A DNA stretch of 44,733 nucleotides from Candidatus Promineifilaceae bacterium (GTDB lineage: Bacteria > Chloroflexota > Anaerolineae > Promineifilales > Promineifilaceae), in NCBI GenBank assembly GCA_046259695.1, contig JBJYWX010000209.1, positions 1-44,733 on the forward strand, given 5' to 3'. The position numbers and the translations under genes are program-made. Numbering within the stretch: position 1 is the first letter of the stretch; every line of letters begins with the position of its first letter. Positions 1,183-11,142 of this stretch are shown here, in pieces. The notes below the pieces were generated by a model, which worked only from the letters and a program-made list of their open reading frames with translations, searched no databases and was not told the origin of the DNA.

Positions 1183-3315
1183 TCAGTTGGCAATCGTGAT
1201 CGGGGCCAAAAGCAGTCGGTCAGCGACTGCCTGGCCTTCTTCCTCCACCGCCAGGCGTTCTCCCGTCGGCTGGTTATAAACGCCAATCTCCAACTGGTAC
1301 TCGCCCGGCTTCAGATCGCGCGGCAGTGCCAGCGGCATGTAGCTTAGCAGGCGTTCCCCTCCCGCTTCGCGCCAGAAACTGGTAGGGTATTCGTTGGCGT
1401 CAAAGCCGGCGACTACCTTCCCATCCATATCTAGCAGATGGGCGAAGATCGTGTATTGGCGCGGCGGTCTCTGCAGCAGCTCCCAATAAAGAATAAGTTC
1501 CAGGGTGTCTCCCGGCTCCAAGGTGGAGGCATTCCGGTCATGCCCTAAGAAGCGCATGATCGTCTCAAAATTGACGGGTAGGGCAATGGGATTGCTTGTC
1601 TCCTGCAGCGTCTCCTGGTCAAAAGTTGTCGCCCATGACCAGGTGGCGGGCGTTCTGTCTCGTGGTTCGGGATAAACGGCAGGGGACCAATGCATTACCT
1701 CGGCTACCGGCCGGTCAAACCGGTCGTACACTGTCTCCACAGCTGCCAGTCCCGTGCCAAGTTCCATCAAAGCTGGCTGGGGCACATTCTCCGCTAGCAG
1801 CACGTATGTCGCCTCTTCCCCAGGTGGCGGCAACGGTAAACTCTGGCGGGCATCAAACCAGTGGATTCCATCGTATGTTTCGGGCGCCAGGAGGGCAAGC
1901 GTTGGATGCTGCATATACTGCGTCGAAAGATAGATAGCGCCGCTGGGAGGGTGACGGCGCAAATAGTCGGCGACGTAAACCATGGCGACGCGCCGGTCAT
2001 CATCGTTACGCGGCGACAGATGCCAGCGCTGGAAGTAAGCACTGGCCGTCTGTACGGTCAGCCAGACAAAGAGTATCAGCACCACAGCCGAAGCAATTTT
2101 CGAGACAGACTGCCCACCCAGGCGCCTTGCCTGGCGCAGCGCCTCATCCAGGGTCAAGGCAGGGAAGAAGTAGACAACGGGCAAAACGCCGATGGCCCGC
2201 TGGTAATAGGGCAGCGATTCGGCCGACAATACCATGGGCAGAAGCATGATTAGCAGCCACAGGGGCGCCGCCAGGTAAGCAACCCGCGATAGGTCCCTAC
2301 CCTTGTAAGCACGCCACAGAGCCAGAGGGATGCCCGCATAGAACAGCGCCCCGACGAGCCGGTTAAAAACGGGCTGCCCGGCTATGTTAAAGCGGTAATT
2401 GATATCGCCCCATACCGTCCACATACGTGCTGTTTCCAGCATGCTCTGACGCAGGCGGCCAAAAGCATCCCCGCCGGACCACTCAGGCGAGAAGACGGAA
2501 ATCTGTGCGGCACGGCCGAAGAAATCTTGGGGATGCAGCCAGAAATGGCGGCCTAGGGGCAGAAACACCAACAGGGCCACGCCGCCCATGGCGGCAAGCG
2601 GCATCCAGTGAGCCGCTACTGCCCGCCGATCAAAGAGCAGTGCAAGCACCAGTATGGACAGGATAAAAAAGGGGAAAAGGCGTACTGCCGTGTAGGTATA
2701 AGGGGAAAGGCCAAGAAAAAATCCCGCCGCCAGGAACGGCCACCAGGCAGGCCATCCGCTGCCGGCCCGCTGCCGCAAACCATAGAAAAGAAAGAGAACC
2801 ACAAAGAGCTGGACAAACGGCTGGATCACGGCACGATAGCCATTGCGGCTGGCGATCAGGTGCCACAGCGAGACGGTGAGAAGAGCGGCGGTCAGCAAGC
2901 CGATCCGGCGCGTGAACAAGGTCCGCACCGTCGTATACGTGAGGGCCACGGTCAAGATACCGATATAAGCCGATAACAACCGCCCGGTAAAGATGTTTTC
3001 CCCTTGCAGCGCAAAAAGGAAGGCTTCCAAATAGACAAAGAGCGCCTCGCGACCAGTGAAAGCGGAGAAGAAGACCGGGTGGTACTTTCCGGCAAGCACA
3101 TCGCGCGCCAGCAGTGCCTTGGTAGCCTCATCCGGGTGCCAACCAAATGGAATCGAGGCCAGGCAATAGAGACGCAAGAATGCCGCTAGCAGCAGAACGG
3201 TTAGCGGTGCGGCTGTGGTCAAAGTGAGCTGCCTAAGACTGCGCATGAGACCATATAGCGTAGTGCGAATCAAAGAATTGGCAAGCGAATGAGCGGCGGC
3301 CGGTCCGCCGCTCAC
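1183..3315 (-). CDS. GT-C fold membrane glycosyltransferase (ArnT/PMT_2, GT39-like) with C-terminal soluble beta-rich domain
   Basis: 710 aa with many predicted TM helices. The N-terminal loop motif GWHPDEATKALLARDV (DE motif) is typical of ArnT/PMT-like enzymes. The C-terminal ~110 aa (GDTLELILYWELL...YTIFAHLLD...LPRDLKPGEYQLEIGVY) is paralogous to the C-terminus of the 32273..34669 protein. Confidence 0.7.
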   Translation of the reverse strand: MSGGPAAAHSLANSLIRTTLYGLMRSLRQLTLTTAAPLTVLLLAAFLRLYCLASIPFGWHPDEATKALLARDVLAGKYHPVFFSAFTGREALFVYLEAFLFALQGENIFTGRLLSAYIGILTVALTYTTVRTLFTRRIGLLTAALLTVSLWHLIASRNGYRAVIQPFVQLFVVLFLFYGLRQRAGSGWPAWWPFLAAGFFLGLSPYTYTAVRLFPFFILSILVLALLFDRRAVAAHWMPLAAMGGVALLVFLPLGRHFWLHPQDFFGRAAQISVFSPEWSGGDAFGRLRQSMLETARMWTVWGDINYRFNIAGQPVFNRLVGALFYAGIPLALWRAYKGRDLSRVAYLAAPLWLLIMLLPMVLSAESLPYYQRAIGVLPVVYFFPALTLDEALRQARRLGGQSVSKIASAVVLILFVWLTVQTASAYFQRWHLSPRNDDDRRVAMVYVADYLRRHPPSGAIYLSTQYMQHPTLALLAPETYDGIHWFDARQSLPLPPPGEEATYVLLAENVPQPALMELGTGLAAVETVYDRFDRPVAEVMHWSPAVYPEPRDRTPATWSWATTFDQETLQETSNPIALPVNFETIMRFLGHDRNASTLEPGDTLELILYWELLQRPPRQYTIFAHLLDMDGKVVAGFDANEYPTSFWREAGGERLLSYMPLALPRDLKPGEYQLEIGVYNQPTGERLAVEEEGQAVADRLLLAPITIAN

Positions 3316-3373
3316 TTAGAAGTCACTGCATTTGCTGCTAGGTTGGTGCTTTACGCCGGATACCGAGAACGCT

Positions 3374-3389
3374 TAAGTCATTTGACGTA
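3374..3389. promoter_or_regulatory. 16-bp 7-2-7 inverted repeat TAAGTCA-TT-TGACGTA (copy A1), putative NarL-family response-regulator operator
   Basis: Near-perfect palindrome (6 of 7 positions complementary between halves). It lies 32 bp upstream of copy A2 and about 150 nt upstream of the receiver gene start. Same heptamer family as copies B and C. Confidence 0.45.
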
Positions 3390-3405
3390 GCAGCGTGGGA
3401 TCAGA

Positions 3406-3446
3406 GCACGCATTTGTCGTAGCACGGACCCATCATACGGCCGATG
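3406..3446. promoter_or_regulatory. Bipartite motif copy A2: GCACGCA-TT-TGTCGTA (only the right half-site is good) plus box 2 ATCATACGGCCGATG
   Basis: The right heptamer with flanks, CATTTGTCGTAGCA, matches copies A1, B and C. Box 2 (3432..3446) begins 10 nt after the heptamer, against 11 nt in copies B and C. Box 2 overlaps an 8-bp perfect inverted repeat, TACGGCCG-ATGG-CGGCCGTA (3436..3455). Confidence 0.4.
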
Positions 3447-3529
3447 GCGGCCGTACATTCACTTGGTATGCTAGATACAATTGGGCCAATGGCTAACGTG
3501 AAACGAGGCGGCGCGGACGCGCGCCGTCA

Positions 3530-3964
3530 TTGTGGAGGAATACCCCCTTGGACAGACGCATCCAAATCCTTATTGTCGACGACAGCACTACAGTGCGGCA
3601 GGGCTTGCTGGCCTTGATCGACACCGCGCCTGACATGACTGTTGTCGGCCAGGCCACGGATGCATCAACTGCCATAGAACTCACGCGTCGGACCCAGCCC
3701 GATGTCATCATTTTTGACCCTAGCGCCCCCCTGGAGCAAAACATAAATACGATTGCCGCCTTGCGTCAGGCAAGCGGATTAACACGCATTCTGATCCTCA
3801 CTGACGACGGTGATGAGCAGCCCGTCCGCGCTGCGCTGCAAGCCGGCGTTCAAGGATACTTGCTGAAGGATGCAGTGCTGACTGATGTCTTAACTGCGAT
3901 CCGCCGCGCGTTTGAAGGCCAGATCGTGCTTCACCCCAGCTTGTCACCGGGCTACATCATATGA
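3530..3964 (+). CDS. Stand-alone response-regulator receiver domain (NarL-type receiver, no output domain)
   Basis: ILIVDDSTTVRQGL (acidic pocket DD), PDVIIFD (phospho-acceptor Asp), ILILTD (Thr) and YLLKD (Lys) are all present. It aligns along its whole length with the receiver half of the 7615..8271 RR and stops just after the shared LHP motif, so there is no HTH. The TTG start from the ORF track is uncertain. Confidence 0.8.
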   Translation: MWRNTPLDRRIQILIVDDSTTVRQGLLALIDTAPDMTVVGQATDASTAIELTRRTQPDVIIFDPSAPLEQNINTIAALRQASGLTRILILTDDGDEQPVRAALQAGVQGYLLKDAVLTDVLTAIRRAFEGQIVLHPSLSPGYII

Positions 3965-3994
3965 CGTAGCCACACCTCTATCATTGCGCCGATG
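3953..3994. promoter_or_regulatory. Bipartite motif copy B: TACATCA-TA-TGACGTA (3953..3968) plus box 2 ATCATTGCGCCGATG (3980..3994)
   Basis: The palindrome halves are 6/7 complementary. The stop codon of the receiver gene (TGA 3962..3964) lies inside the palindrome. The motif sits about 160 nt upstream of the first LysW-like gene. Confidence 0.45.
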
Positions 3995-4128
3995 CATGTT
4001 AGCGATCGTTGTTTTACGATAGGCATAATGACCATGTCGCATAAGCGACTAATTATGCGCACCTTTCACGCGGCGGGGATGCAGGTGAACATTCCCCATG
4101 CGACGCAAATAACAGTCAGGAGATAACA

Positions 4129-4419
4129 ATGTCCTTACGTACTAAACGAGAAATTACCGCCACCTGTCCCGGATGTGGTAACGAAATATACTTTCATGAA
4201 ATGCCTCGACTCGGCCAATTTGTCACCTGCCCGGAGTGCGGTGATATGACTGAAGTCATCAGCCTCGATCCGGTCGCTCTTGACTGGTCTTCTGATTGGG
4301 AAGACGAAGAGTGGGAAGATGACTGGGAATACGAGGGCGGCTCCTACGATGAAGAAGATGAACTTGAAGATTTTGACAATGACGAGTATGACGACGAGTC
4401 GGATAATGATGATTATTAG
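4129..4419 (+). CDS. LysW-fold zinc-ribbon mini-protein with 45-aa hyper-acidic, Trp/Tyr-rich tail (paralog 1)
   Basis: SD AGGAGA (4118..4123) lies 5 nt before the ATG. CPGC...(17 aa)...CPEC is followed by MTEVISLDPVALDW, which resembles the LysW/ArgW amino-group carrier zinc ribbon. The tail (residues 52-96) has 27 D/E, no K/R, 4 W, 4 Y and 1 F, and ends in Tyr rather than the carrier EDWGE-Glu. Confidence 0.75.
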   Translation: MSLRTKREITATCPGCGNEIYFHEMPRLGQFVTCPECGDMTEVISLDPVALDWSSDWEDEEWEDDWEYEGGSYDEEDELEDFDNDEYDDESDNDDY

Positions 4420-4565
4420 TTGAGGGCATCGGCTTTGGGCGCAGCACGGCGGCCGGACCATTGGCAGACAGTAAAAGACGCCGGCGAGCTCCTTACAAGG
4501 GTTAACTTGCAGTTGTTTTAAATGGCATGTCCTAAGGCAGACGTAATCCAGGAAAGGAGAATTTG

Positions 4566-4793
4566 ATGAATCAACAAGGCGAACAGGCCATCGTGGCCAA
4601 ATGCGTTGCCTGCCGTTCCCGCATTTTCTTCAAGGCACGACCAGAGTTAGGGGACTACGTAACATGCCCTGAATGTAAGGCGCAGCTTGAGGTTGTGGCG
4701 CTGTCCCCTCTGCGTCTGGATTGGCTCTTTGAAGAAGACAGCCAGTCTACCTGGCGCCAGCCGGCACACAATCCAATAGATGTCGAACGATAA
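4566..4793 (+). CDS. LysW-fold zinc-ribbon mini-protein (paralog 2, short non-acidic tail)
   Basis: SD AAGGAG (4554..4559) lies 6 nt before ATG 4566; the ORF track starts at TTG 4563. CVAC...(17 aa)...CPEC is followed by QLEVVALSPLRLDW. The tail LFEEDSQSTWRQPAHNPIDVER ends in Arg. Confidence 0.7.
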   Translation: MNQQGEQAIVAKCVACRSRIFFKARPELGDYVTCPECKAQLEVVALSPLRLDWLFEEDSQSTWRQPAHNPIDVER

Positions 4794-4844
4794 GCCTCAA
4801 ACGGAGGGCACCGACCTTACCAACCGGCCTGAAGCGAAGCCAAG

Positions 4845-4873
4845 AACCCCATTCTTCCTGAGTGGGGTTTTTT
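4845..4873 (+). terminator. Rho-independent terminator after the LysW-like gene pair
   Basis: Stem AACCCCA (4845..4851) pairs with TGGGGTT (4863..4869) around an 11-nt loop. A run of six T (4868..4873) spans the end of the 3' arm and the following tail. Confidence 0.65.
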
Positions 4874-4876
4874 ATA

Positions 4877-4905
4877 TTGACTTCTTTTTGGCTGGACATC
4901 ATAAG
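4877..4905 (+). promoter_or_regulatory. Candidate sigma70-type promoter TTGACT-17-CATAAG
   Basis: The -35 TTGACT (4877..4882) has 5/6 matches, the spacer is 17 nt, and the -10 CATAAG (4900..4905) has 4/6. It would give a leader of about 205 nt before the 5118 start. Position-based guess only. Confidence 0.35.
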
Positions 4906-5117
4906 CTGATTTGTAAGAAACTCGTACTATCTTATGGTTAAGATGCAGCCAATGGGTCGGCATATTGTGCCAGAGGTCGACCGGCTGCTGGGATGGGATA
5001 GGAGCATAGAAGCGTACAACGAAGCCACTAGTGAGCTAAGGTATTCGATAGCAGTTAGAATTCCGGCGCCTTGGCGCCAGAATCTGGTTAAGAGCAGCTT
5101 AGTAGGAGATAAAGAAG

Positions 5118-6275
5118 ATGCACCGACGAATGGGGATGCTTCTTGTTTTTCTGGCAGTGTTGCTCCTTTCCCCGCTTGTGGCGCAGGCTAGCGCCGCTCT
5201 GTTCCAGAGCGGCCCTGCGCTCGAATATTTGGGTGAAGGGGGCAGTTATACGATAGCAGACGGGCGGCACTTTATTGTAAAACAGACTGGGCCGTTTCGA
5301 TTCATTAACGTGCCCGGGCCGACTTACACTGCTACCGGCGATGAACGGGTTTGGGCAGCTACGCTGAACGCGCCATCGCCTTTAGTACGAACATGGGTCA
5401 GCTACGGCAGTGTGCCAAAGGGCTGTGAAATCTCTTACATGGCGATCGACGATGATCCAGATGATCGGATCAATGTATTTTATATTGACGATGACCCGGT
5501 TCATGATATGCCGCAAGGCTTCGTAACCGGCGGGTCATTTGTTTCGCCATCTGCGGGCAACCTGCGCCTCCAGGCGGTGGACAGCATCGGCATCTGGCTC
5601 GACAAATGTGAGGGCGAATCTACCATCACGCCGACAACCCCACCAGTGGACACCATTACGGCGACACCAACCGCAACGGCCACCACAGATGTCACTGTAT
5701 CTCCGACGGCCACAACCCCTGTTACGGTTTCGCCAACGGCTACAGATCAAGGTCCGAGCACGGCGATAGCGCCGACTCCGGAGCAGGAAACGGCAACGCC
5801 TACGGCGACCGCCACGAAGAAACCACGACTTCCAGCCTGCTTGCGCATAAATTTTGAAGTGAGCGGTGACCTGGCAAAAGAAGGCGTGTTTGAGGTGCGT
5901 GAAACAGGTGGCAGGCTGCTTTACAGCTGGTACGCGGAAGAGGGCTGGTACGACAGCGGCTGGATCAGAGACATTGACATCTCATTCGAATCGGTCTTCA
6001 TCGAGGTTTTCTACGTGCCGGCCGACGGCCCGCGCGTGCGTATGGAGATCTTTAATCCTGCCCCCGGCACGTCATATGGCTGGTTAGGTCGCGGCATGTG
6101 CCATGCACTGGAAGTGGGCTGGCCCGATGAAACCATTACGCCTACGCCCACACCGGACGCGCAAGATGGCTTTAACGACGAGTTCGATTTGGAGCAACTA
6201 GATCTGCTGCGCTTTATCTGGCCCGGCATCCAGCCAACCGCCACGAGCACACCGGCCAGTTCGCTGCGAGGCTAA
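5118..6275 (+). CDS. Secreted two-domain protein of unknown function with Thr/Pro-rich linker
   Basis: SD GGAGA upstream of the ATG. Signal peptide MHRRMGMLLVFLAVLLLSPLVAQASA. Linker TPTTPPVDTITATPTATATTDVTVSPTATTPVTVSPTAT...ATPTATATKKP. I recognise no family in the flanking ~170-aa and ~150-aa domains. Confidence 0.6.
   Translation: MHRRMGMLLVFLAVLLLSPLVAQASAALFQSGPALEYLGEGGSYTIADGRHFIVKQTGPFRFINVPGPTYTATGDERVWAATLNAPSPLVRTWVSYGSVPKGCEISYMAIDDDPDDRINVFYIDDDPVHDMPQGFVTGGSFVSPSAGNLRLQAVDSIGIWLDKCEGESTITPTTPPVDTITATPTATATTDVTVSPTATTPVTVSPTATDQGPSTAIAPTPEQETATPTATATKKPRLPACLRINFEVSGDLAKEGVFEVRETGGRLLYSWYAEEGWYDSGWIRDIDISFESVFIEVFYVPADGPRVRMEIFNPAPGTSYGWLGRGMCHALEVGWPDETITPTPTPDAQDGFNDEFDLEQLDLLRFIWPGIQPTATSTPASSLRG
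5691..5750 (+). repeat. 2 x 30-nt in-frame tandem duplication inside the Thr/Pro linker
   Basis: gtcactgtatctccgacggccacaacccct followed by gttacggtttcgccaacggctacagatcaa, encoding VTVSPTATTP / VTVSPTATDQ. Within the shared VTVSPTAT codons the differences are synonymous third-position changes. Confidence 0.6.
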
Positions 6276-6332
6276 GCCGCCTGGTCGCCGCCGCGACCGG
6301 CAGCTTATTCACGTTTAGAATTGGAATTTACG

Positions 6333-6358
6333 AAGGGGCGCTTTGCGCCCCTTTTTTG
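6333..6358 (+). terminator. Rho-independent terminator after the secreted-protein gene
   Basis: Perfect stem GGGGCGC (6335..6341) / GCGCCCC (6345..6351), TTT loop, followed by TTTTTT (6352..6357). Confidence 0.75.
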
Positions 6359-6384
6359 TTACCATATTTCGCCTGCCGTATTCA
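6356..6384 (+). promoter_or_regulatory. Candidate promoter TTGTTA-17-TATTCA for the kinase/regulator operon
   Basis: The -35 is at 6356..6361 and the -10 at 6379..6384 with an exact 17-nt spacer. This leaves a very short leader with no obvious SD before ATG 6402. Low confidence. Confidence 0.3.
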
Positions 6385-6401
6385 TACGCTAAAATAACGA
6401 T

Positions 6402-7622
6402 ATGGTACCGGCATCAATGGGCACCGATCCAGCGCCTGACGAAAGAACACTGGCGCTGCTAGAGCAGCAGGCGGCCGACCGCACGCGCAAGCTAAGCGCG
6501 CTATATGACATTTTGGAAGCTGCCAGCGCACCCAGCGATCTGCAGACCACTATCACACGCTCGCTGCATCGCGTATTGAAAGCAGTTAAGAGCGACGCGG
6601 GAGCCATCCACTTGCTGGATAAACGGGGCGAGACGCTGCGACTGGCGGCGCAGCAAGGACTGCCTGAGAAGACCTCAGCTTTGCTGGAAAAAATCGACGT
6701 GCGCGAAAACACGCTGGCCGGCTGGGTCGTGCGCCACAATGAGCTGCTGCTCATTCCCGATATGCGCACCGACGACCGCGCGGCGAGTATTGCCGCCTTA
6801 AGCGATCATGCTGTCCTGTTGGCCGTTCCTATTGTCGCCAATGAGCAGGTGCGCGGCGTGTTGACTGTATTGGGCGACGATTTAGGCCATTATACAGCGC
6901 AGGAAGAGATGGACCTGGTCACTTCCGTGGGTGAGCAGCTCGGCGTTGTCGTAGAAAACGCGCGCCTGCGGCAGCAAATGGAAGAACTGGTAGTCATGGA
7001 GGAGAGAAACCGCCTAGCACGGGAGCTGCATGATTCCGTAACACAGTCACTTTACAGCGTGACCCTGTTTGCAGAAGCTGGTATCAATCTGAACGAGGCG
7101 GGCGAATACGAACGCGCAGGCCAGCTTTTTCCGGATATCCTGGAAACCGGTCGGCAGGCGCTTAAGGAAATGCGCCTGCTGGTCCACAAGCTGCGGCCGT
7201 CTGCTCTTGAAAAGGAAGGCTTCGCGAAGGCCATTCAGCACCGGCTGAATGCTGTTGAAGGGCGTGCAGGCATTAAGCACCAGCTTATCGTGCATGGTGA
7301 TCTAGACATGAGCCAGGAAATAGAAGAAACGATCTTTCATGTCACACAGGAAGCACTTAACAACGCCATTAAACACGCTAATGCAGACACGGTACGCGTC
7401 GAGCTGCGCCAGGATCGGTATGGCCTTACGCTCATCGTCGCCGACAATGGCCTGGGATTCGATCTACAAGCGGCGGCCGAGGGCAGCGGTCTCGGCCTGG
7501 TGAGCATGCGCGAGCGCGTTGAGGAGCTAGGCGGGTCCATTGCCTATGAATCGGCACCCGGCCAAGGCGCGCTGATTCGAGTCCAGCTGCCGGCGGGCGC
7601 GACCGGAGCGACCGATGAGTGA
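6402..7622 (+). CDS. Soluble GAF-domain sensor histidine kinase (HisKA_3 + HATPase_c, NarX/LiaS/DegS class)
   Basis: No TM segments. GAF-like N-terminal region (...GAIHLLDKRGETLRLAAQQG...VPIVANEQVRGVLTV). H-box EERNRLARELHDSVTQSLYS. N-box QEALNNAIKHANA and G-box DNGLGF...GLGLVSMRERV. Confidence 0.85.
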   Translation: MVPASMGTDPAPDERTLALLEQQAADRTRKLSALYDILEAASAPSDLQTTITRSLHRVLKAVKSDAGAIHLLDKRGETLRLAAQQGLPEKTSALLEKIDVRENTLAGWVVRHNELLLIPDMRTDDRAASIAALSDHAVLLAVPIVANEQVRGVLTVLGDDLGHYTAQEEMDLVTSVGEQLGVVVENARLRQQMEELVVMEERNRLARELHDSVTQSLYSVTLFAEAGINLNEAGEYERAGQLFPDILETGRQALKEMRLLVHKLRPSALEKEGFAKAIQHRLNAVEGRAGIKHQLIVHGDLDMSQEIEETIFHVTQEALNNAIKHANADTVRVELRQDRYGLTLIVADNGLGFDLQAAAEGSGLGLVSMRERVEELGGSIAYESAPGQGALIRVQLPAGATGATDE

Positions 7623-8271
7623 AAAGATACGTATTTTCCTCGCTGACGATCACACCGTGGTGCGCAAGGGACTGGAAACCCTCATCAGCACACAAAGTGA
7701 TATGCAGGTCGTAGGCACGGCCGTGGACGGCGTGGAAGCGGTGGACCGGATCTTACATCTGCAACCTGACGTTATCTTGCTCGACATACAGATGCCCCGC
7801 AAAAACGGCGTGGAGGCAATCAGCGAAATTAGAGCCCAATTACCTGATGCCCATATCCTGGTCCTAACCAGCTTCAGCGAAGATGATACTGTTTTTGCGG
7901 CGATAAAAGCGGGGGCATTGGGCTACTTGCTCAAGGACTCCTCATCGGGCGAGTTGATCCAGGCCATCCGCAATGTCCATCAGGGGCGCTCCTCGCTCCA
8001 TCCCGACGTGGCGCTCAAGGTTATCCACGAACTGAATAAACCGGCGCCAGAACTGCCTCTTACAGAAGAACCTCTCACTGAGCGTGAAGTTGAAGTGGTA
8101 CGCCTGGTAGCGCGCGGTTTCTCCAACCAGGCGATAGCCGAACAACTCGTGGTCAGCGAACGCACGGTACGCACCCACATCAGCAACATTCTCAGCAAAC
8201 TGCATTTGGCCAATCGCACCCAGGCCGCTCTCTACGCGCTTCGGCAAGGCCTTGCCAGCCTGGATGACTGA
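7615..8271 (+). CDS. NarL/FixJ-family response regulator (receiver + LuxR-type HTH)
   Basis: The start overlaps the kinase stop by 8 nt (ATGAGTGA). Receiver motifs LADDH, ILLDIQMP, LVLTS and YLLKD. HTH LTEREVEVVRLVARGFSNQAIAEQLVVSERTVRTHISNILSKL. Confidence 0.9.
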   Translation: MSEKIRIFLADDHTVVRKGLETLISTQSDMQVVGTAVDGVEAVDRILHLQPDVILLDIQMPRKNGVEAISEIRAQLPDAHILVLTSFSEDDTVFAAIKAGALGYLLKDSSSGELIQAIRNVHQGRSSLHPDVALKVIHELNKPAPELPLTEEPLTEREVEVVRLVARGFSNQAIAEQLVVSERTVRTHISNILSKLHLANRTQAALYALRQGLASLDD

Positions 8272-8289
8272 GCCCCACTGAGCTTAATT

Positions 8290-8331
8290 TACGTCATTTG
8301 TCGTAATGAGTTTCCCAACATTTCGCCGATG
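8290..8331. promoter_or_regulatory. Bipartite motif copy C: TACGTCA-TT-TGTCGTA (8290..8305) plus box 2 AACATTTCGCCGATG (8317..8331)
   Basis: The palindrome halves are 6/7 complementary. Box 2 starts 11 nt after the palindrome, as in copy B. The motif lies directly after the RR gene and about 110 nt upstream of the third LysW-like gene. Confidence 0.45.
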
Positions 8332-8413
8332 TGCCGCCAAATTGCAGTGACTATGATTGGTGTAACGTTTTGTTGTCTCTATACGATCTTGTTTGTTTGA
8401 GGAGATGGCCGTC

Positions 8414-8623
8414 ATGGCAAAGTCAATATCAAAAGTATTGATTGCCGAGTGTCCTGAGTGCGAGTCCCACATTCGCTTCCATCGGAGCCTGCGTCTAGGT
8501 GAGATTGTAACTTGCCCGGAGTGCAGTGAACGTTTGGAAGTGAGCCAGTTGAATCCGCTGGAACTTGACTGGGCGTTCGACGATTATGATGAAAATGACG
8601 ACAATTACGATTCGTGGAATTGA
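8414..8623 (+). CDS. LysW-fold zinc-ribbon mini-protein with acidic tail (paralog 3)
   Basis: The ORF track starts at TTG 8393. SD GAGGAG (8399..8404) abuts ATG 8405 and is 9 nt before ATG 8414, so 8414 is the better-spaced start (8405 remains possible). CPEC...(17 aa)...CPEC is followed by RLEVSQLNPLELDW. The tail AFDDYDENDDNYDSWN ends in Asn. Confidence 0.7.
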   Translation: MAKSISKVLIAECPECESHIRFHRSLRLGEIVTCPECSERLEVSQLNPLELDWAFDDYDENDDNYDSWN

Positions 8624-8663
8624 TTCATAATCCCCCCAGTAAAGTAGGCTAGATTCACTGGAG

Positions 8664-8695
8664 AGGGCCATCGCATTCGTGAGGTGGCCTTTTTT
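8664..8695 (+). terminator. Rho-independent terminator after LysW-like paralog 3
   Basis: 9-bp stem (8664..8672 with 8683..8691, two G-U pairs), 10-nt loop, then a T-run continuing to 8695. Confidence 0.55.
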
Positions 8696-8960
8696 GGTTA
8701 TTAATCGCATTTTGCGGCACGATTTCCTCATTCATGTAAGCAGGCAGGCTCGAACCATTTGGCCCCTCCTCCACCGGCCGTTGCACCTGCTTCTATCCTA
8801 GTATTTTCATCCCCAGAGCTTAGCAAACCGACAGCTTAGCATGCCGACCAGGCGCCCTACGCCCGGTACCGTGCCTAATTCAATTGCCACCCCGTGCCGG
8901 GAACCAATGCCGGGCACGAAGCGTCTTAAGAAGCACATATCCAAAATAGGAGAGATTATC

Positions 8961-9698
8961 ATGAACAAGAAACTTGCCGTAATCGCAATGGGCTTGTTAG
9001 CTATGGCCGGAATGCTGGTCGGCTGCGCCACGCCGGTCGAGGCCAACGCCGCCAATGCTCAGGAACCGCCCAATGGTGACAAGAGTATCACCGTCATTGG
9101 CCAGGGTGAGGCTCTTGGCCAGCCGGACCGCGCCCAGGTCACATTAGGCGTTGAGATCTTCGCCCCAACCGTTGGTGAAGCGACAGCGCAGAATGAAGAG
9201 ACAATTCAGGCCATTATGGCCGCGCTGGTTGAAATGGGTGTGGCCCGCACGGACGTCCAGACGGCAAATTACGGCCTCTGGGCAGAACAGAAATATGGTG
9301 ATCAGGGTCCGGAAGGGATTGCTGGCTATCACGTCACGAATCAGCTAAACACAACCATCCGTGACGTAGATCAGTTGGGCCCTGTTCTGGAAGCTGTCAT
9401 TGAAGCCGGGGCCAATAGTATCCAGGGCGTCTCTTTCAGTGTATCCGATCCGGCCCGGCTGGAAGCCGAGGCTCGTGCCGCGGCCATGGCGGACGCACGG
9501 GCACGGGCCGAGTCATTGGCCGAATTGGCCGGCGTTGAACTGGGCGAAATCCGGATCATCAACGAGGTCATGAGCCAGCCGGGTTACCCACTCCAGGGAA
9601 TGGGTGGCGTCGCCTTTGACCAGGCATCTGAACCCAGTTTCTCGCCCGGCCAACTGCGCCATCAGATGCAGGTGCAGGTAACCTTCGCCATCAATTAA
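8961..9698 (+). CDS. SIMPL/DUF541-family lipoprotein (YggE-like)
   Basis: SD AGGAGAG (8948..8954) precedes ATG 8961; the 8841 extension in the ORF track has no support. Lipobox MNKKLAVIAMGLLAMAGMLVGC. Body ITVIGQGEA...PDRAQVTLGVE...ANYGLW...GYHVTNQL...ANSIQGVSFSV...ARAAAMADARARAESLA is typical of SIMPL domain proteins. Confidence 0.75.
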   Translation: MNKKLAVIAMGLLAMAGMLVGCATPVEANAANAQEPPNGDKSITVIGQGEALGQPDRAQVTLGVEIFAPTVGEATAQNEETIQAIMAALVEMGVARTDVQTANYGLWAEQKYGDQGPEGIAGYHVTNQLNTTIRDVDQLGPVLEAVIEAGANSIQGVSFSVSDPARLEAEARAAAMADARARAESLAELAGVELGEIRIINEVMSQPGYPLQGMGGVAFDQASEPSFSPGQLRHQMQVQVTFAIN

Positions 9699-9722
9699 AA
9701 GACTCACTCAGACACAATCCGA

Positions 9723-9767
9723 GGAGCTCCTTTTGGCCGTTTGCGAAAGAGGAGTTCCTTGGTGTTT
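9723..9767 (+). terminator. Possible terminator after the SIMPL gene
   Basis: GGAGCTCCTTTT (9723..9734) pairs with AAAGAGGAGTTCC (9746..9758): 12 bp with one bulge and one G-U. It is followed by TTGGTGTTT. Confidence 0.4.
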
Positions 9768-9816
9768 GGAACCCGGCAAAAGAAAGAATCCAGGCATAAG
9801 CCTTATCTTCTTGCGC

Positions 9817-9845
9817 TTGTAACCGCCAACAGGACAAGCTATACT
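9817..9845 (+). promoter_or_regulatory. Candidate sigma70-type promoter TTGTAA-17-TATACT
   Basis: The -35 is at 9817..9822 (4/6), the spacer is exactly 17 nt, and the -10 is at 9840..9845 (5/6). This implies a ~110-nt leader containing two hairpins (GGCGC-TCCCCT-GCGCC and CTTTGC-TGCTT-GCAAAG). No SD is visible before ATG 9961. Confidence 0.45.
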
Positions 9846-9960
9846 GCCCGTCGAGCACACATTTAGATTAAAAGGCGCTCCCCTGCGCCCAATGAATGGT
9901 TCTACATGCTCCAAGGGGGTTTCCACTTTGCTGCTTGCAAAGCGGACACGCAACTGAATC

Positions 9961-11142
9961 ATGACCACGCCGCCCCAACCTGTGGAACAGAACCCGGGCC
10001 GGGAAAGTAAGGCACCAACTCAACCACCCGCTGCGGAACCGGCAGCAAGCGTGCCGGGTATTTCGCAGGACGATCTGGCGTCGCGCCCCAAAGCTGTATG
10101 GCAGCGAATCGCCTGGGCGAAGATCGCCCTGTTCCTTTTCAGCTTGCTGCTCTTTATCCTGGCCTTGATGCTGATGAAAGAGGGCGCCAAAGGCCTGGCG
10201 CCATACCTCGACGGTCGAGGGATAATAGGCAATGCGGCCAACAGCCTTGGCTTTGGCTGGCTCTTCGCTTACGCGGTGATGAGCGGATCGCCGGTAGCCG
10301 CCTCAGCGTTAACATTCCTGGACGCCGGAATCCTTAACCAGGCGCAGGCCTTCACCATGATAAGCGGGAGCCGTTTGGGCTCAAGCCTCATCGTGTTGAT
10401 CATTGGCTTTCTATATGTCTTGCGCGGCCGGGACCGCGCGACCAGCCTTGGCGCCGGGCTGCTCTCATTCACTGTCACCGGTACGCTGCATATGGGTGTC
10501 CTGCTGTTCGGCCTGGTCGTTTTGCGCAATCCGCGGCTGCAGATCGTTCCCTCTGGTGAGGGCATGCTCCTTAACGGTCTGACCGGCGCTTTCCTGGACC
10601 CGATCGTCGCCCTTGCGGCGGCACGGCTTCCTCCTTGGGCCCTGTTTCTAGCCGGCCTGCTGATCATACTTGGCAGCTTTAGCCTGTTCGATCGCTGTTT
10701 GCCGCAGATGACCCTGCAGGAAAGCCAATTCAGCCGGGTGGCGCGCCTCGTATACAAACCGATGGTCATGTTTCTTCTGGGCTGCGCCATCACGTTGCTC
10801 TCCATGTCGGTCAGCGTTTCGCTGACGCTGCTGGTGCCTTTGAGCCAGCGTGGTTTTGTACGCCGCGAGAATTTCGTCCCATACATCATGGGCGCCAACG
10901 TTACCACCTTTATCGATACGCTCTTCGCGGCGTTCATGTTGAGTAACCCGGCAGCGGTTACTGTGGTGGTCACACAGATGATCGGCGTCAGCTTGACCTC
11001 GGCCGTGATCCTGCTATTCTTTTTCCGCGGTTATGAACGCCTCCTGCTGGTCTTCTCGGCGTGGGTAACAGCTTCAAACCGGCACATTATCTACTTTATG
11101 GTCATTATAATTACCGTTCCAATCTTACTGGTACTGCTATGA
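9961..11142 (+). CDS. Polytopic membrane protein, divergent Na+/Pi-cotransporter (NptA, PF02690-like) family
   Basis: There are two internal repeats. Each has a Ser-rich helix followed by a G-x-N/R-hGT/SS-like motif: MSGSPVAASALTFLDAGILNQAQAFTMISGSRLGSS and LSMSVSVSLTLLVPLSQRGF...YIMGANVTTFIDT. This resembles the QSSSA...GANIGTT repeats of Na/Pi cotransporter-like proteins. The similarity is judged by eye only. Confidence 0.4.
   Translation: MTTPPQPVEQNPGRESKAPTQPPAAEPAASVPGISQDDLASRPKAVWQRIAWAKIALFLFSLLLFILALMLMKEGAKGLAPYLDGRGIIGNAANSLGFGWLFAYAVMSGSPVAASALTFLDAGILNQAQAFTMISGSRLGSSLIVLIIGFLYVLRGRDRATSLGAGLLSFTVTGTLHMGVLLFGLVVLRNPRLQIVPSGEGMLLNGLTGAFLDPIVALAAARLPPWALFLAGLLIILGSFSLFDRCLPQMTLQESQFSRVARLVYKPMVMFLLGCAITLLSMSVSVSLTLLVPLSQRGFVRRENFVPYIMGANVTTFIDTLFAAFMLSNPAAVTVVVTQMIGVSLTSAVILLFFFRGYERLLLVFSAWVTASNRHIIYFMVIIITVPILLVLL

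Follow-up and report, generated by a model that had tools for sequence, protein, structure and literature searches.

LiaR, a response regulator (RR) of the NarL/FixJ family, has a 16-bp consensus site, T(X)4C(X)4G(X)4A (PMC4482077), and occupies, as a tetramer, this consensus together with an adjoining secondary site that bears no discernible homology to it. VraR binds a conserved site, R1, and a less conserved site, R2, for which the phosphorylated dimer is needed (PMC6612188), while DesR binds two adjacent sites, the distal one with the higher affinity, both being required for activation (PMC4251995). For DevR, cooperative binding to P and S boxes at -42.5 and -63.5 has been described (PMC3177182). 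Here we analyse a 44.7-kb stretch of DNA (hereafter the window; 44,733 nt of contig JBJYWX010000209.1) from Candidatus Promineifilaceae bacterium, a member of the Anaerolineae (Chloroflexota), in which a recurrent bipartite motif, a 16-bp palindrome followed by a 15-nt box (box 2), lies ahead of genes for an orphan single-domain receiver and for LysW-like proteins, close to a gene for a NarL-type RR. To our knowledge, very little has been learned so far about how transcription is regulated in this group.

We propose, with a probability of about 0.72 for the reading as a whole, that this RR operates a local regulon of the receiver and LysW-like genes through the palindrome and box 2, activating three promoters, P1, P2 and P3. 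Each site would form the upstream portion of a housekeeping-sigma-type promoter that depends on an activator and has four parts: a good -10 (TAtgAT), a weak -35 (ATGtgn), the proximal box 2, which is asymmetric and 15 nt long, (G/A)TCAT-N3-GCCGATG, and the distal 16-bp palindrome, TACGTCA-WW-TGACGTA.

Motif and promoter elements in the window

Positions are numbered by setting the -10 hexamer at -12 to -7, so that they refer to starts that are predicted, not mapped. Full sites sit ahead of the receiver gene (P1), LysW-like gene 1 (P2) and LysW-like gene 3 (P3), all on the plus strand. At P2 the palindrome TACATCATATGACGTA (3953-3968, centred at about -66.5) is followed by box 2 ATCATTGCGCCGATG (3980-3994). 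The P3 palindrome, TACGTCATTTGTCGTA (8290-8305), begins 19 nt past the RR stop codon, has its centre likewise at about -66.5 and is followed by box 2 AACATTTCGCCGATG (8317-8331). P1 has two palindrome-like sites: a far-upstream full palindrome, TAAGTCATTTGACGTA (3374-3389, centre about -97.5), which fits T-N4-C-N4-G-N4-A, and a distal site, GCACGCATTTGTCGTA (GCACGCA-TT-TGTCGTA, 3406-3421, centre about -65.5), in which the right half only is conserved. Box 2 of P1, ATCATACGGCCGATG (3432-3446), runs from about -47 to -33, and its final ATG opens the weak -35. An earlier reading of the letters by themselves (the sequence-only reading) had listed the palindromes and boxes, and its coordinates and strings are all exact, as is its count of 11 invariant positions among the 15 of box 2. 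Its placing of the sites 110-170 nt upstream of the genes holds roughly, the distances from palindrome to start codon being about 143 nt (TTG at 3549), 176 nt (ATG at 4129) and 124 nt (ATG at 8414).

The first point to note is that the separate pieces are not unusual in the window, where the 18 copies of GCCGATG alone compare with an expectation of 12, and the 10 matches to TTTGWCGTA (one mismatch allowed) with an expectation of 9.4. The composite CAT-N3-GCCGATG (CATNNNGCCGATG) has three matches on both strands taken together, and these are exactly the reported sites, all on the plus strand. The palindrome TACRTCAWWTGWCGTA, with up to one mismatch, matches at 3374, 3953 and 8290 only. When the composite is extended to CATNNNGCCGATG-N20-TANNNT, the window has three exact matches, versus none in all 100 shuffles. 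The composite motif is highly non-random in the window.

The extension rests on a third element, which the sequence-only reading had overlooked: at all three sites a -10-like hexamer lies exactly 20 nt past GCCGATG. On the plus strand, these hexamers are TATGCT at P1 (3467-3472, predicted start about 3479), TACGAT at P2 (4015-4020, predicted start about 4027) and TATGAT at P3 (8352-8357, predicted start about 8364). At the same distance, loci from relatives carry TAGGAT (L006), TATACT (L015), TAAGAT and CATACT (L013) and TATGAT (L003). Strict matches to box 2 number 16 in the 692 kb fetched in all, and TAnnnT stands at 20 nt in each of the eight with an upstream palindrome (three in the window and five in other Chloroflexota, the latter chosen by box 2 only) and in none of the other eight (chance matches, controls and other phyla). 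A matrix of 21 sites holds information at -45 to -43 (CAT), -39 to -33 (GCCGATG), -32/-31 (TG) and -12 to -7 (TAtgAT); because the sites were partly picked by eye using the -10, its T, A and T there are not independent evidence, whereas the excess of T at -10 and of A at -8 does not depend on that choice.

GCCGATG thus occupies -39 to -33 and the whole of box 2 -47 to -33, and the -10 follows box 2 at a fixed interval of 20 nt, or 21 nt in one case. With a 17-nt spacer to the -10, the -35 hexamer would be ATGTGC, ATGGCG or ATGCAT, none near TTGACA, its first three bases being the last three of GCCGATG. Because the -35 consensus is absent, a consensus promoter scan missed P1-P3. A weak -35 is typical of activator-dependent promoters, and the placing of the sites ahead of such a -35 and of a good -10 speaks for activation rather than repression. 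The sequence-only reading had offered, among its options for box 2, the 5' end of a leader or a promoter element; the former falls away, box 2 lying upstream of the predicted starts, and the conserved -10 located 20 nt downstream makes it a promoter-proximal element that overlaps the -35.

Other assignments of the promoter hexamers were tried and rejected. Taking TTGACG/TTGTCG of the palindrome as a -35, with CATnnn or GCCGAT as the -10, gives spacers of 12-14 or 20-21 nt, and a better conserved -10 lies downstream, in agreement with the earlier statement that the right half of the palindrome is no -35. The sigma-28-type -10 is GCCGATAA; GCCGATG as such an element has no TAAA 15 nt upstream, and the box stands at the -35 position of an ordinary conserved -10. 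TACAAT at 3476 and CATAAT at 4024, both 29 nt past box 2, were set aside as -10 candidates since only the hexamers at 20 nt are conserved in all lineages.

It might be supposed that the repeat acts in RNA, as a hairpin or leader in read-through transcripts, or that it is a chance product. The palindrome could form a 6-bp hairpin, and P2 and P3 directly follow upstream genes. Against this, Rfam 15 has no match in the whole window, box 2 and the palindrome lie upstream of the conserved -10 and hence outside the transcript of their own promoter, right-half-only sites are conserved, and the half-site variants (TGTCGTA versus TACGTCA) show no compensating changes. An RNA element was rejected on these grounds, and chance is excluded by the absence of matches in 100 shuffles, so that the probability left to this explanation is negligible.

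The P2 palindrome (3953-3968) overlaps the receiver stop codon, TGA at 3962-3964, and this putative operator is thus partly coding. There is no terminator between the receiver gene and LysW-like gene 1, and read-through from P1 is possible.

Conservation alongside RR orthologues

A strict motif scan with one genome per species, the source genome not being among the representatives, gave seven matches where about four were expected by chance. Two were clear homologues in metagenome-assembled genomes (MAGs) of Chloroflexota: L006, with the order RR, motif, LysW-like gene, and L003, where the motif is ahead of a gene for a secreted protein without assigned function. In a LysW-anchored scan of metagenomes, covering 80 loci, the motif was found only in L015, with the order histidine kinase (HK), RR, motif, LysW-like gene and ATP-grasp ligase gene, and in L013/L010, where divergent motifs stand ahead of an ATP-grasp gene and of a LysW-LysW-HK-RR operon. 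A tblastn comparison of the window RR with 87 other loci detected an orthologue in L006, L010 and L015 only, all of them motif-bearing; L013, from the same organism as L010, and L003 have the motif and no RR on the short stretch covered.

One further match of the strict scan lies in an alphaproteobacterium, Aureimonas ureilytica (L009, NZ_LDQA01000016.1, 2776-2813). It consists of a perfect TACGTCATTTGACGTA and CATTCCGCCGATG with a gap of 14 nt, upstream of a gene for a urea/amide-type periplasmic binding protein (Peripla_BP_5). No TAnnnT stands at 20 nt from this box, and no RR orthologue occurs in the 8 kb covered. A perfect palindrome is unexpected among the roughly four chance matches of the scan.

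A protein search with the RR returned many orthologues, 70-90% identical, in Anaerolineae MAGs that include Promineifilaceae and Ardenticatenaceae. Eleven RR-anchored loci were fetched without reference to the motif, and a palindrome-like site was present in 10 of them at up to three mismatches and in 8 at up to two. At the latter threshold there are 19 palindromes in 181 kb of RR-anchored loci versus 0 in 429 kb of LysW-only controls, but the controls come mostly from other phyla and the enrichment may partly reflect lineage rather than the RR. With controls this distant, enrichment alone is no proof of a link to the RR.

Stronger arguments for that link are the position of the palindrome relative to the RR stop codon in many lineages and its fit to the LiaR box. 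The palindrome lies about 10 to 55 nt past the stop codon in at least eight lineages. The order RR, motif, LysW-like gene recurs in the window and in L006, L015, L090, L092, L098 and L100, and in L096 a receiver gene is placed between the RR and LysW-like genes, with a separate motif for each. When the RR-to-LysW spacers of seven lineages (RR identity 47-90%) were aligned, the only conserved blocks were the palindrome, box 2 and the -10, which in the window are the three elements of P3. Perfect copies of the palindrome are found in L006, L015, L093, L094, L098 and L100.

In relatives, the three-part promoter also precedes a Usp-CBS-transporter operon, MgtE, a BON-domain gene, an MFS transporter, an orphan receiver, a Ddl-type ATP-grasp ligase gene followed by a lysine-2,3-aminomutase-like gene, an OmpR-type regulator pair, transaldolase and a second NarL-type RR. 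The proposal of the sequence-only reading that the sites are operators of the adjacent NarL-type RR is thus supported by all the indirect tests, and the motif is kept next to RR orthologues in many Chloroflexota lineages, but the regulon, taken there to be small, is larger in relatives.

The breadth of this gene set bears on whether both boxes serve another regulator altogether, for example a lineage-wide stress regulator, with the two-component genes close by incidentally. In relatives the motif stands before many genes of the stress type (Usp, BON, MgtE) at several kb from the RR, L003 has it with no RR within 8 kb, and the enrichment controls are phylogenetically distant. However, such a regulator would leave unexplained why the palindrome lies so close behind the RR stop codon in at least eight lineages and why, in L010/L013, the motif heads an operon containing both HK and RR. 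Moreover, the 7-2-7 arrangement and T-N4-C-N4-G-N4-A are the pattern of GerE/LuxR-type helix-turn-helix dimers of the LiaR branch. We consider this explanation very unlikely.

The RR and its putative operator

The RR gene (7615-8271, +; Pfam Response_reg and GerE) encodes a member of the VraR/LiaR branch of the NarL/LuxR family. Against the PDB, the E values are 1e-51 for VraR/LiaR, 5e-41 for DevR, 6e-36 for DesR and 5e-34 for NarL. The gene overlaps that of a soluble GAF-HisKA_3-HATPase histidine kinase (6417-7622, +; Pfam), whose start at 6417 is taken from the gene call of L001, a metagenome contig 99.9% identical to the window. This kinase is cognate to the RR. Its core has DesK as the closest solved relative, with VraS and DevS also among the closest, and no LiaF-like gene was found in the window or in relatives.

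The DNA-binding domain of the RR can be aligned, with no gaps, to that of LiaR as crystallised in complex with DNA. Its recognition helix reads SERTVRTHISNILSKL, versus TLKTVKTHVSNILAKL in LiaR, and at the positions of K174, K177 and T178, through which LiaR contacts the bases, the RR has R, R and T. On the DNA side, TACGTCATTTGACGTA carries T1, C6, G11 and A16 of the LiaR consensus. All four bases are present at 3374, 3953 and 8290, where the 7-2-7 geometry of inverted heptamers (16 bp) is found as well, whilst the site at 3406 has only C6, G11 and A16. NarL heptamers in the 7-2-7 arrangement begin with TAC, end with GTA and lie upstream of the -35 of the promoters activated. Judged by its bases and geometry, the palindrome is the kind of site to be expected for the LiaR branch of the NarL/FixJ family.

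Spacing of the sites and the reading of box 2

Three classes of gap, of 11-13, 22 and 44-46 nt, separate the palindrome from the CAT of box 2. In most sites the distal palindrome is centred at about -66, and in some it lies one or three helical turns further upstream. The 44-46-nt class comprises P1 of the window and sites in L095 and L096, each before the gene following the RR or receiver. In this class a lone right half-site stands at the gap-12 position in P1 and L095 and, by eye, probably in L096, so that the earlier description of 3406-3421 as a right half only is confirmed as a conserved feature.

Two further arrangements were seen in these loci. In L095 (10683-10783) and L096 (4711-4810) the full palindrome comes directly after the RR stop codon and before the terminator hairpin of the RR gene, with the half-site, box 2 and -10 beyond the hairpin, so that the putative operator straddles the terminator. 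In L090 a single palindrome (4026-4041) apparently serves the divergent promoters of MgtE and of the Usp-CBS-transporter operon, each of which has a degenerate box 2 and a -10 of its own.

Box 2 itself has traits of an RR site. Its 5' part is similar to the left half of the palindrome, six of the seven positions of TACRTCA being matched by CACATCA (L006) and likewise by TGCGTCA (L015), and GCCG keeps the G-x-C-G core of TGWCG, shifted one base further away. We infer that box 2 may be a 7-3-7-like pseudo-dyad (TCA-N4-GCCG) centred at -41.5. Counted from the predicted starts, the site centres would then lie at about -41.5 and about -65.5/-66.5, compared with -42.5 and -63.5 for DevR.

According to the mechanism that we propose, the soluble GAF/HisKA_3 kinase would phosphorylate the LiaR/VraR-like RR, and an RR dimer would bind the high-affinity distal palindrome. 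A second RR dimer, or another factor, would occupy the proximal box that abuts the -35, and RNA polymerase would then be recruited to the promoters, switching on the receiver gene (P1), LysW-like genes 1 and 2 (P2) and LysW-like gene 3 (P3). We propose this sequence of events because the same layout of a strong distal and a proximal site is found with DesR, VraR, LiaR and DevR; with a proximal site at the -35, the mechanism would be a conventional one.

It is conceivable that only the palindrome is an RR operator and that box 2 is read by a second DNA-binding protein, a dedicated sigma factor or another promoter-recognition element. GCCGATG is near-invariant, at least as well conserved as the palindrome, and does not resemble the half-site TGACGTA, and in DevR and VraR the secondary sites show poor conservation, unlike box 2; both facts would suit another reader and weigh against control by the RR through both boxes. 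Box 2 keeps as rigid a spacing to the -10 as a core promoter element would, while its spacing to the palindrome varies, and in L095 a gene for a second NarL-type RR lies directly downstream of such a promoter. However, no gene for a second regulator or sigma factor is conserved across the loci, and the -10 resembles an ordinary housekeeping -10. Box 2 is, furthermore, almost never without an upstream palindrome or half-site, 14 of 17 relaxed matches having one and the remaining three looking like chance, and LiaR itself is reported to bind a secondary site without discernible homology to its consensus. We regard a separate reader for box 2 as rather unlikely, but as a serious rival.

Returning to RR control through both boxes, several other points count against it. 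Centre to centre, the two sites are about 24-25 bp apart, which does not amount to complete turns of the helix, and the palindrome can be displaced upstream by a further 9 or 33 nt, an arrangement that suits a rigid tetramer poorly. One of the loci with an RR orthologue, L099, lacks a palindrome over 12 kb. The motif counts for the source organism are those of the 44.7-kb window, and to these points must be added the partly eye-picked -10 of the matrix and the distance of the enrichment controls, both described above. Finally, RR binding, activation, the use of box 2 as a second RR site and the start points are all deduced from sequence.

Genes of the locus and the candidate regulon

Gene order in the window was established from Pfam and the gene calls of L001. 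Upstream of P1 lies a PMT_2 glycosyltransferase gene on the minus strand (1183-3315; Pfam and L001 gene calls). A perfect GC-rich hairpin, GAGCGGCGG-ccggt-CCGCCGCTC (3290-3315), lies between the start region of this gene and the first palindrome, and reading of the sequence did not reveal a divergent PMT_2 promoter that would use the palindrome at 3374. The receiver gene (3549-3964, +) has a Pfam Response_reg match at E 1e-17 and is called in L001 with 138 aa. Its likely start is the TTG at 3549, preceded by GGAGGA; the listed open reading frame starts at 3530.

LysW-like gene 1 (4129-4419, +; Pfam Zn_ribbon_LysW, E 2e-11) encodes a zinc ribbon with a long acidic tail. LysW-like gene 2 (4566-4793, +; Pfam Zn_ribbon_LysW) has no motif of its own upstream in the searches of the window, and probably shares a transcript with gene 1; behind it, at about 4846-4874, comes a terminator-like hairpin. 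Between the LysW-like genes and the kinase gene lies a gene (5118-6275, +) whose product, 385 aa long and with a linker rich in Thr and Pro, is predicted to be secreted and has no Pfam domain and no relative among the fetched loci; a strong terminator follows at 6332-6354. The motif is absent upstream of the kinase gene, where 6276-6416 was read directly. LysW-like gene 3 (8414-8623, +; 69 aa; Pfam, E 2e-14; L001 gene call) is followed by a terminator-like hairpin at about 8664-8695 and then by a SIMPL gene (8841-9698, +; Pfam and L001 gene calls). Read by eye, the hairpins at about 4846-4874 and 8664-8695 delimit the P2 and P3 units.

The products of LysW-like genes 1-3 have the Zn_ribbon_LysW domain at E values of 2e-10 to 2e-14. 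LysW/ArgW carriers have a conserved C-terminal tail of the EDWGE type. The tails here are long and acidic and their ends, DNDDY, IDVER and DSWN, are not conserved. No LysX/Z/Y/J/K-type enzymes were found by Pfam near the LysW-like genes (1183-11142). The proteins may be carriers or tail-modified proteins.

In relatives, a LysW-like gene adjoins one for a Ddl-type ATP-grasp ligase; the neighbourhoods are L015 6026-7267, L013 922-1995, L093 6084-8887, L096 5458-7568 and L098 881-2512. Other neighbours are a lysine-2,3-aminomutase-like radical SAM enzyme and a GreA/GreB-like factor (L090, L096, L098, L100), and, in L098, a histone-deacetylase-like enzyme and sulfotransferases. Elsewhere, LysW-like genes have different upstream regions. 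L011 (about 1620-1760) and L012 (about 1400-1545) share a regular promoter, TTGTAA-N17-(C/G)ATAAT, followed by a conserved leader, TAAACCnCAGGTA...GATGCAC...CCCTGATGGAGGAGGCA, and the palindrome, box 2 and the RR are absent there. In L014 (about 1250-1400) and L019 (about 700-850) the upstream repeats are GTGTCAAAAAT / GTGACAAAAATGGCAC and TTTGTCAC / TTTGACAC, which suggests yet another regulator for the LysW-like family.

A bolder reading would make box 2 the target of an undescribed promoter-recognition partner which, with the RR, would define an uncharacterised stress regulon of the Anaerolineae; at its core, acidic LysW-like proteins would work with the Ddl-type ATP-grasp ligase, the lysine-2,3-aminomutase-like enzyme and the GreA-like factor. 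We regard this as speculative and improbable; if true, two-component control would extend to a new carrier-protein or protein-tailing pathway.

The model put forward here, of activation of P1-P3 by the RR, is testable and names the site, the predicted starts and the targets for a two-component system found widely among uncultured Anaerolineae. The candidate regulon brings together small acidic LysW-like proteins and an orphan receiver, to which relatives add genes of the stress type and one for an ATP-grasp ligase. It would provide an entry point to the role of the LysW-like proteins and be of use in annotating an uncultured lineage.

Comparison with known two-component systems

In sequence, the RR is closest to LiaR and VraR, known from liaXYZ and liaFSR of Enterococcus faecalis and from the R1 and R2 sites of vraSR in Staphylococcus aureus, and its putative operator has the four consensus bases of their 16-bp box. 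The conserved primary site with an adjoining, dissimilar secondary one is a further likeness, the active form of these regulators being thought to be a higher oligomer. The kinase, however, is a soluble GAF(-PAS) protein here, with no LiaF and no intramembrane-sensing LiaS/VraS, and the targets are unrelated to cell-envelope stress genes. The proximal box is also strongly conserved here. In liaXYZ, the secondary site lies upstream of the consensus.

NarL of Escherichia coli offers a likeness in the inverted heptamers with a 2-bp spacer and TAC...GTA ends. TACGTCA agrees with the NarL consensus TACYYMT at only five of seven positions, however, and NarL is more distant from the RR than are VraR, DevR and DesR.

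DesK-DesR at Pdes of Bacillus subtilis likewise pairs a HisKA_3 kinase with a NarL-family RR that uses two adjacent sites. The DesR sites are 2 nt apart and on one face of the helix, in contrast to a spacer of about 8-11 nt here, extendable by 9 or 33, and DesK is a membrane thermosensor whereas the present kinase is soluble.

In this last respect the system is more like DevR (DosR) of Mycobacterium tuberculosis, which likewise has a soluble, GAF-containing HisKA_3 kinase and a NarL-family RR; Usp genes, moreover, belong to the candidate regulon in relatives here too. The Dev box consensus is of the type GGGACT-TT-AGTCCC. It is unlike the palindrome described here, and whilst the secondary sites of DevR are poorly conserved, box 2 is nearly invariant.

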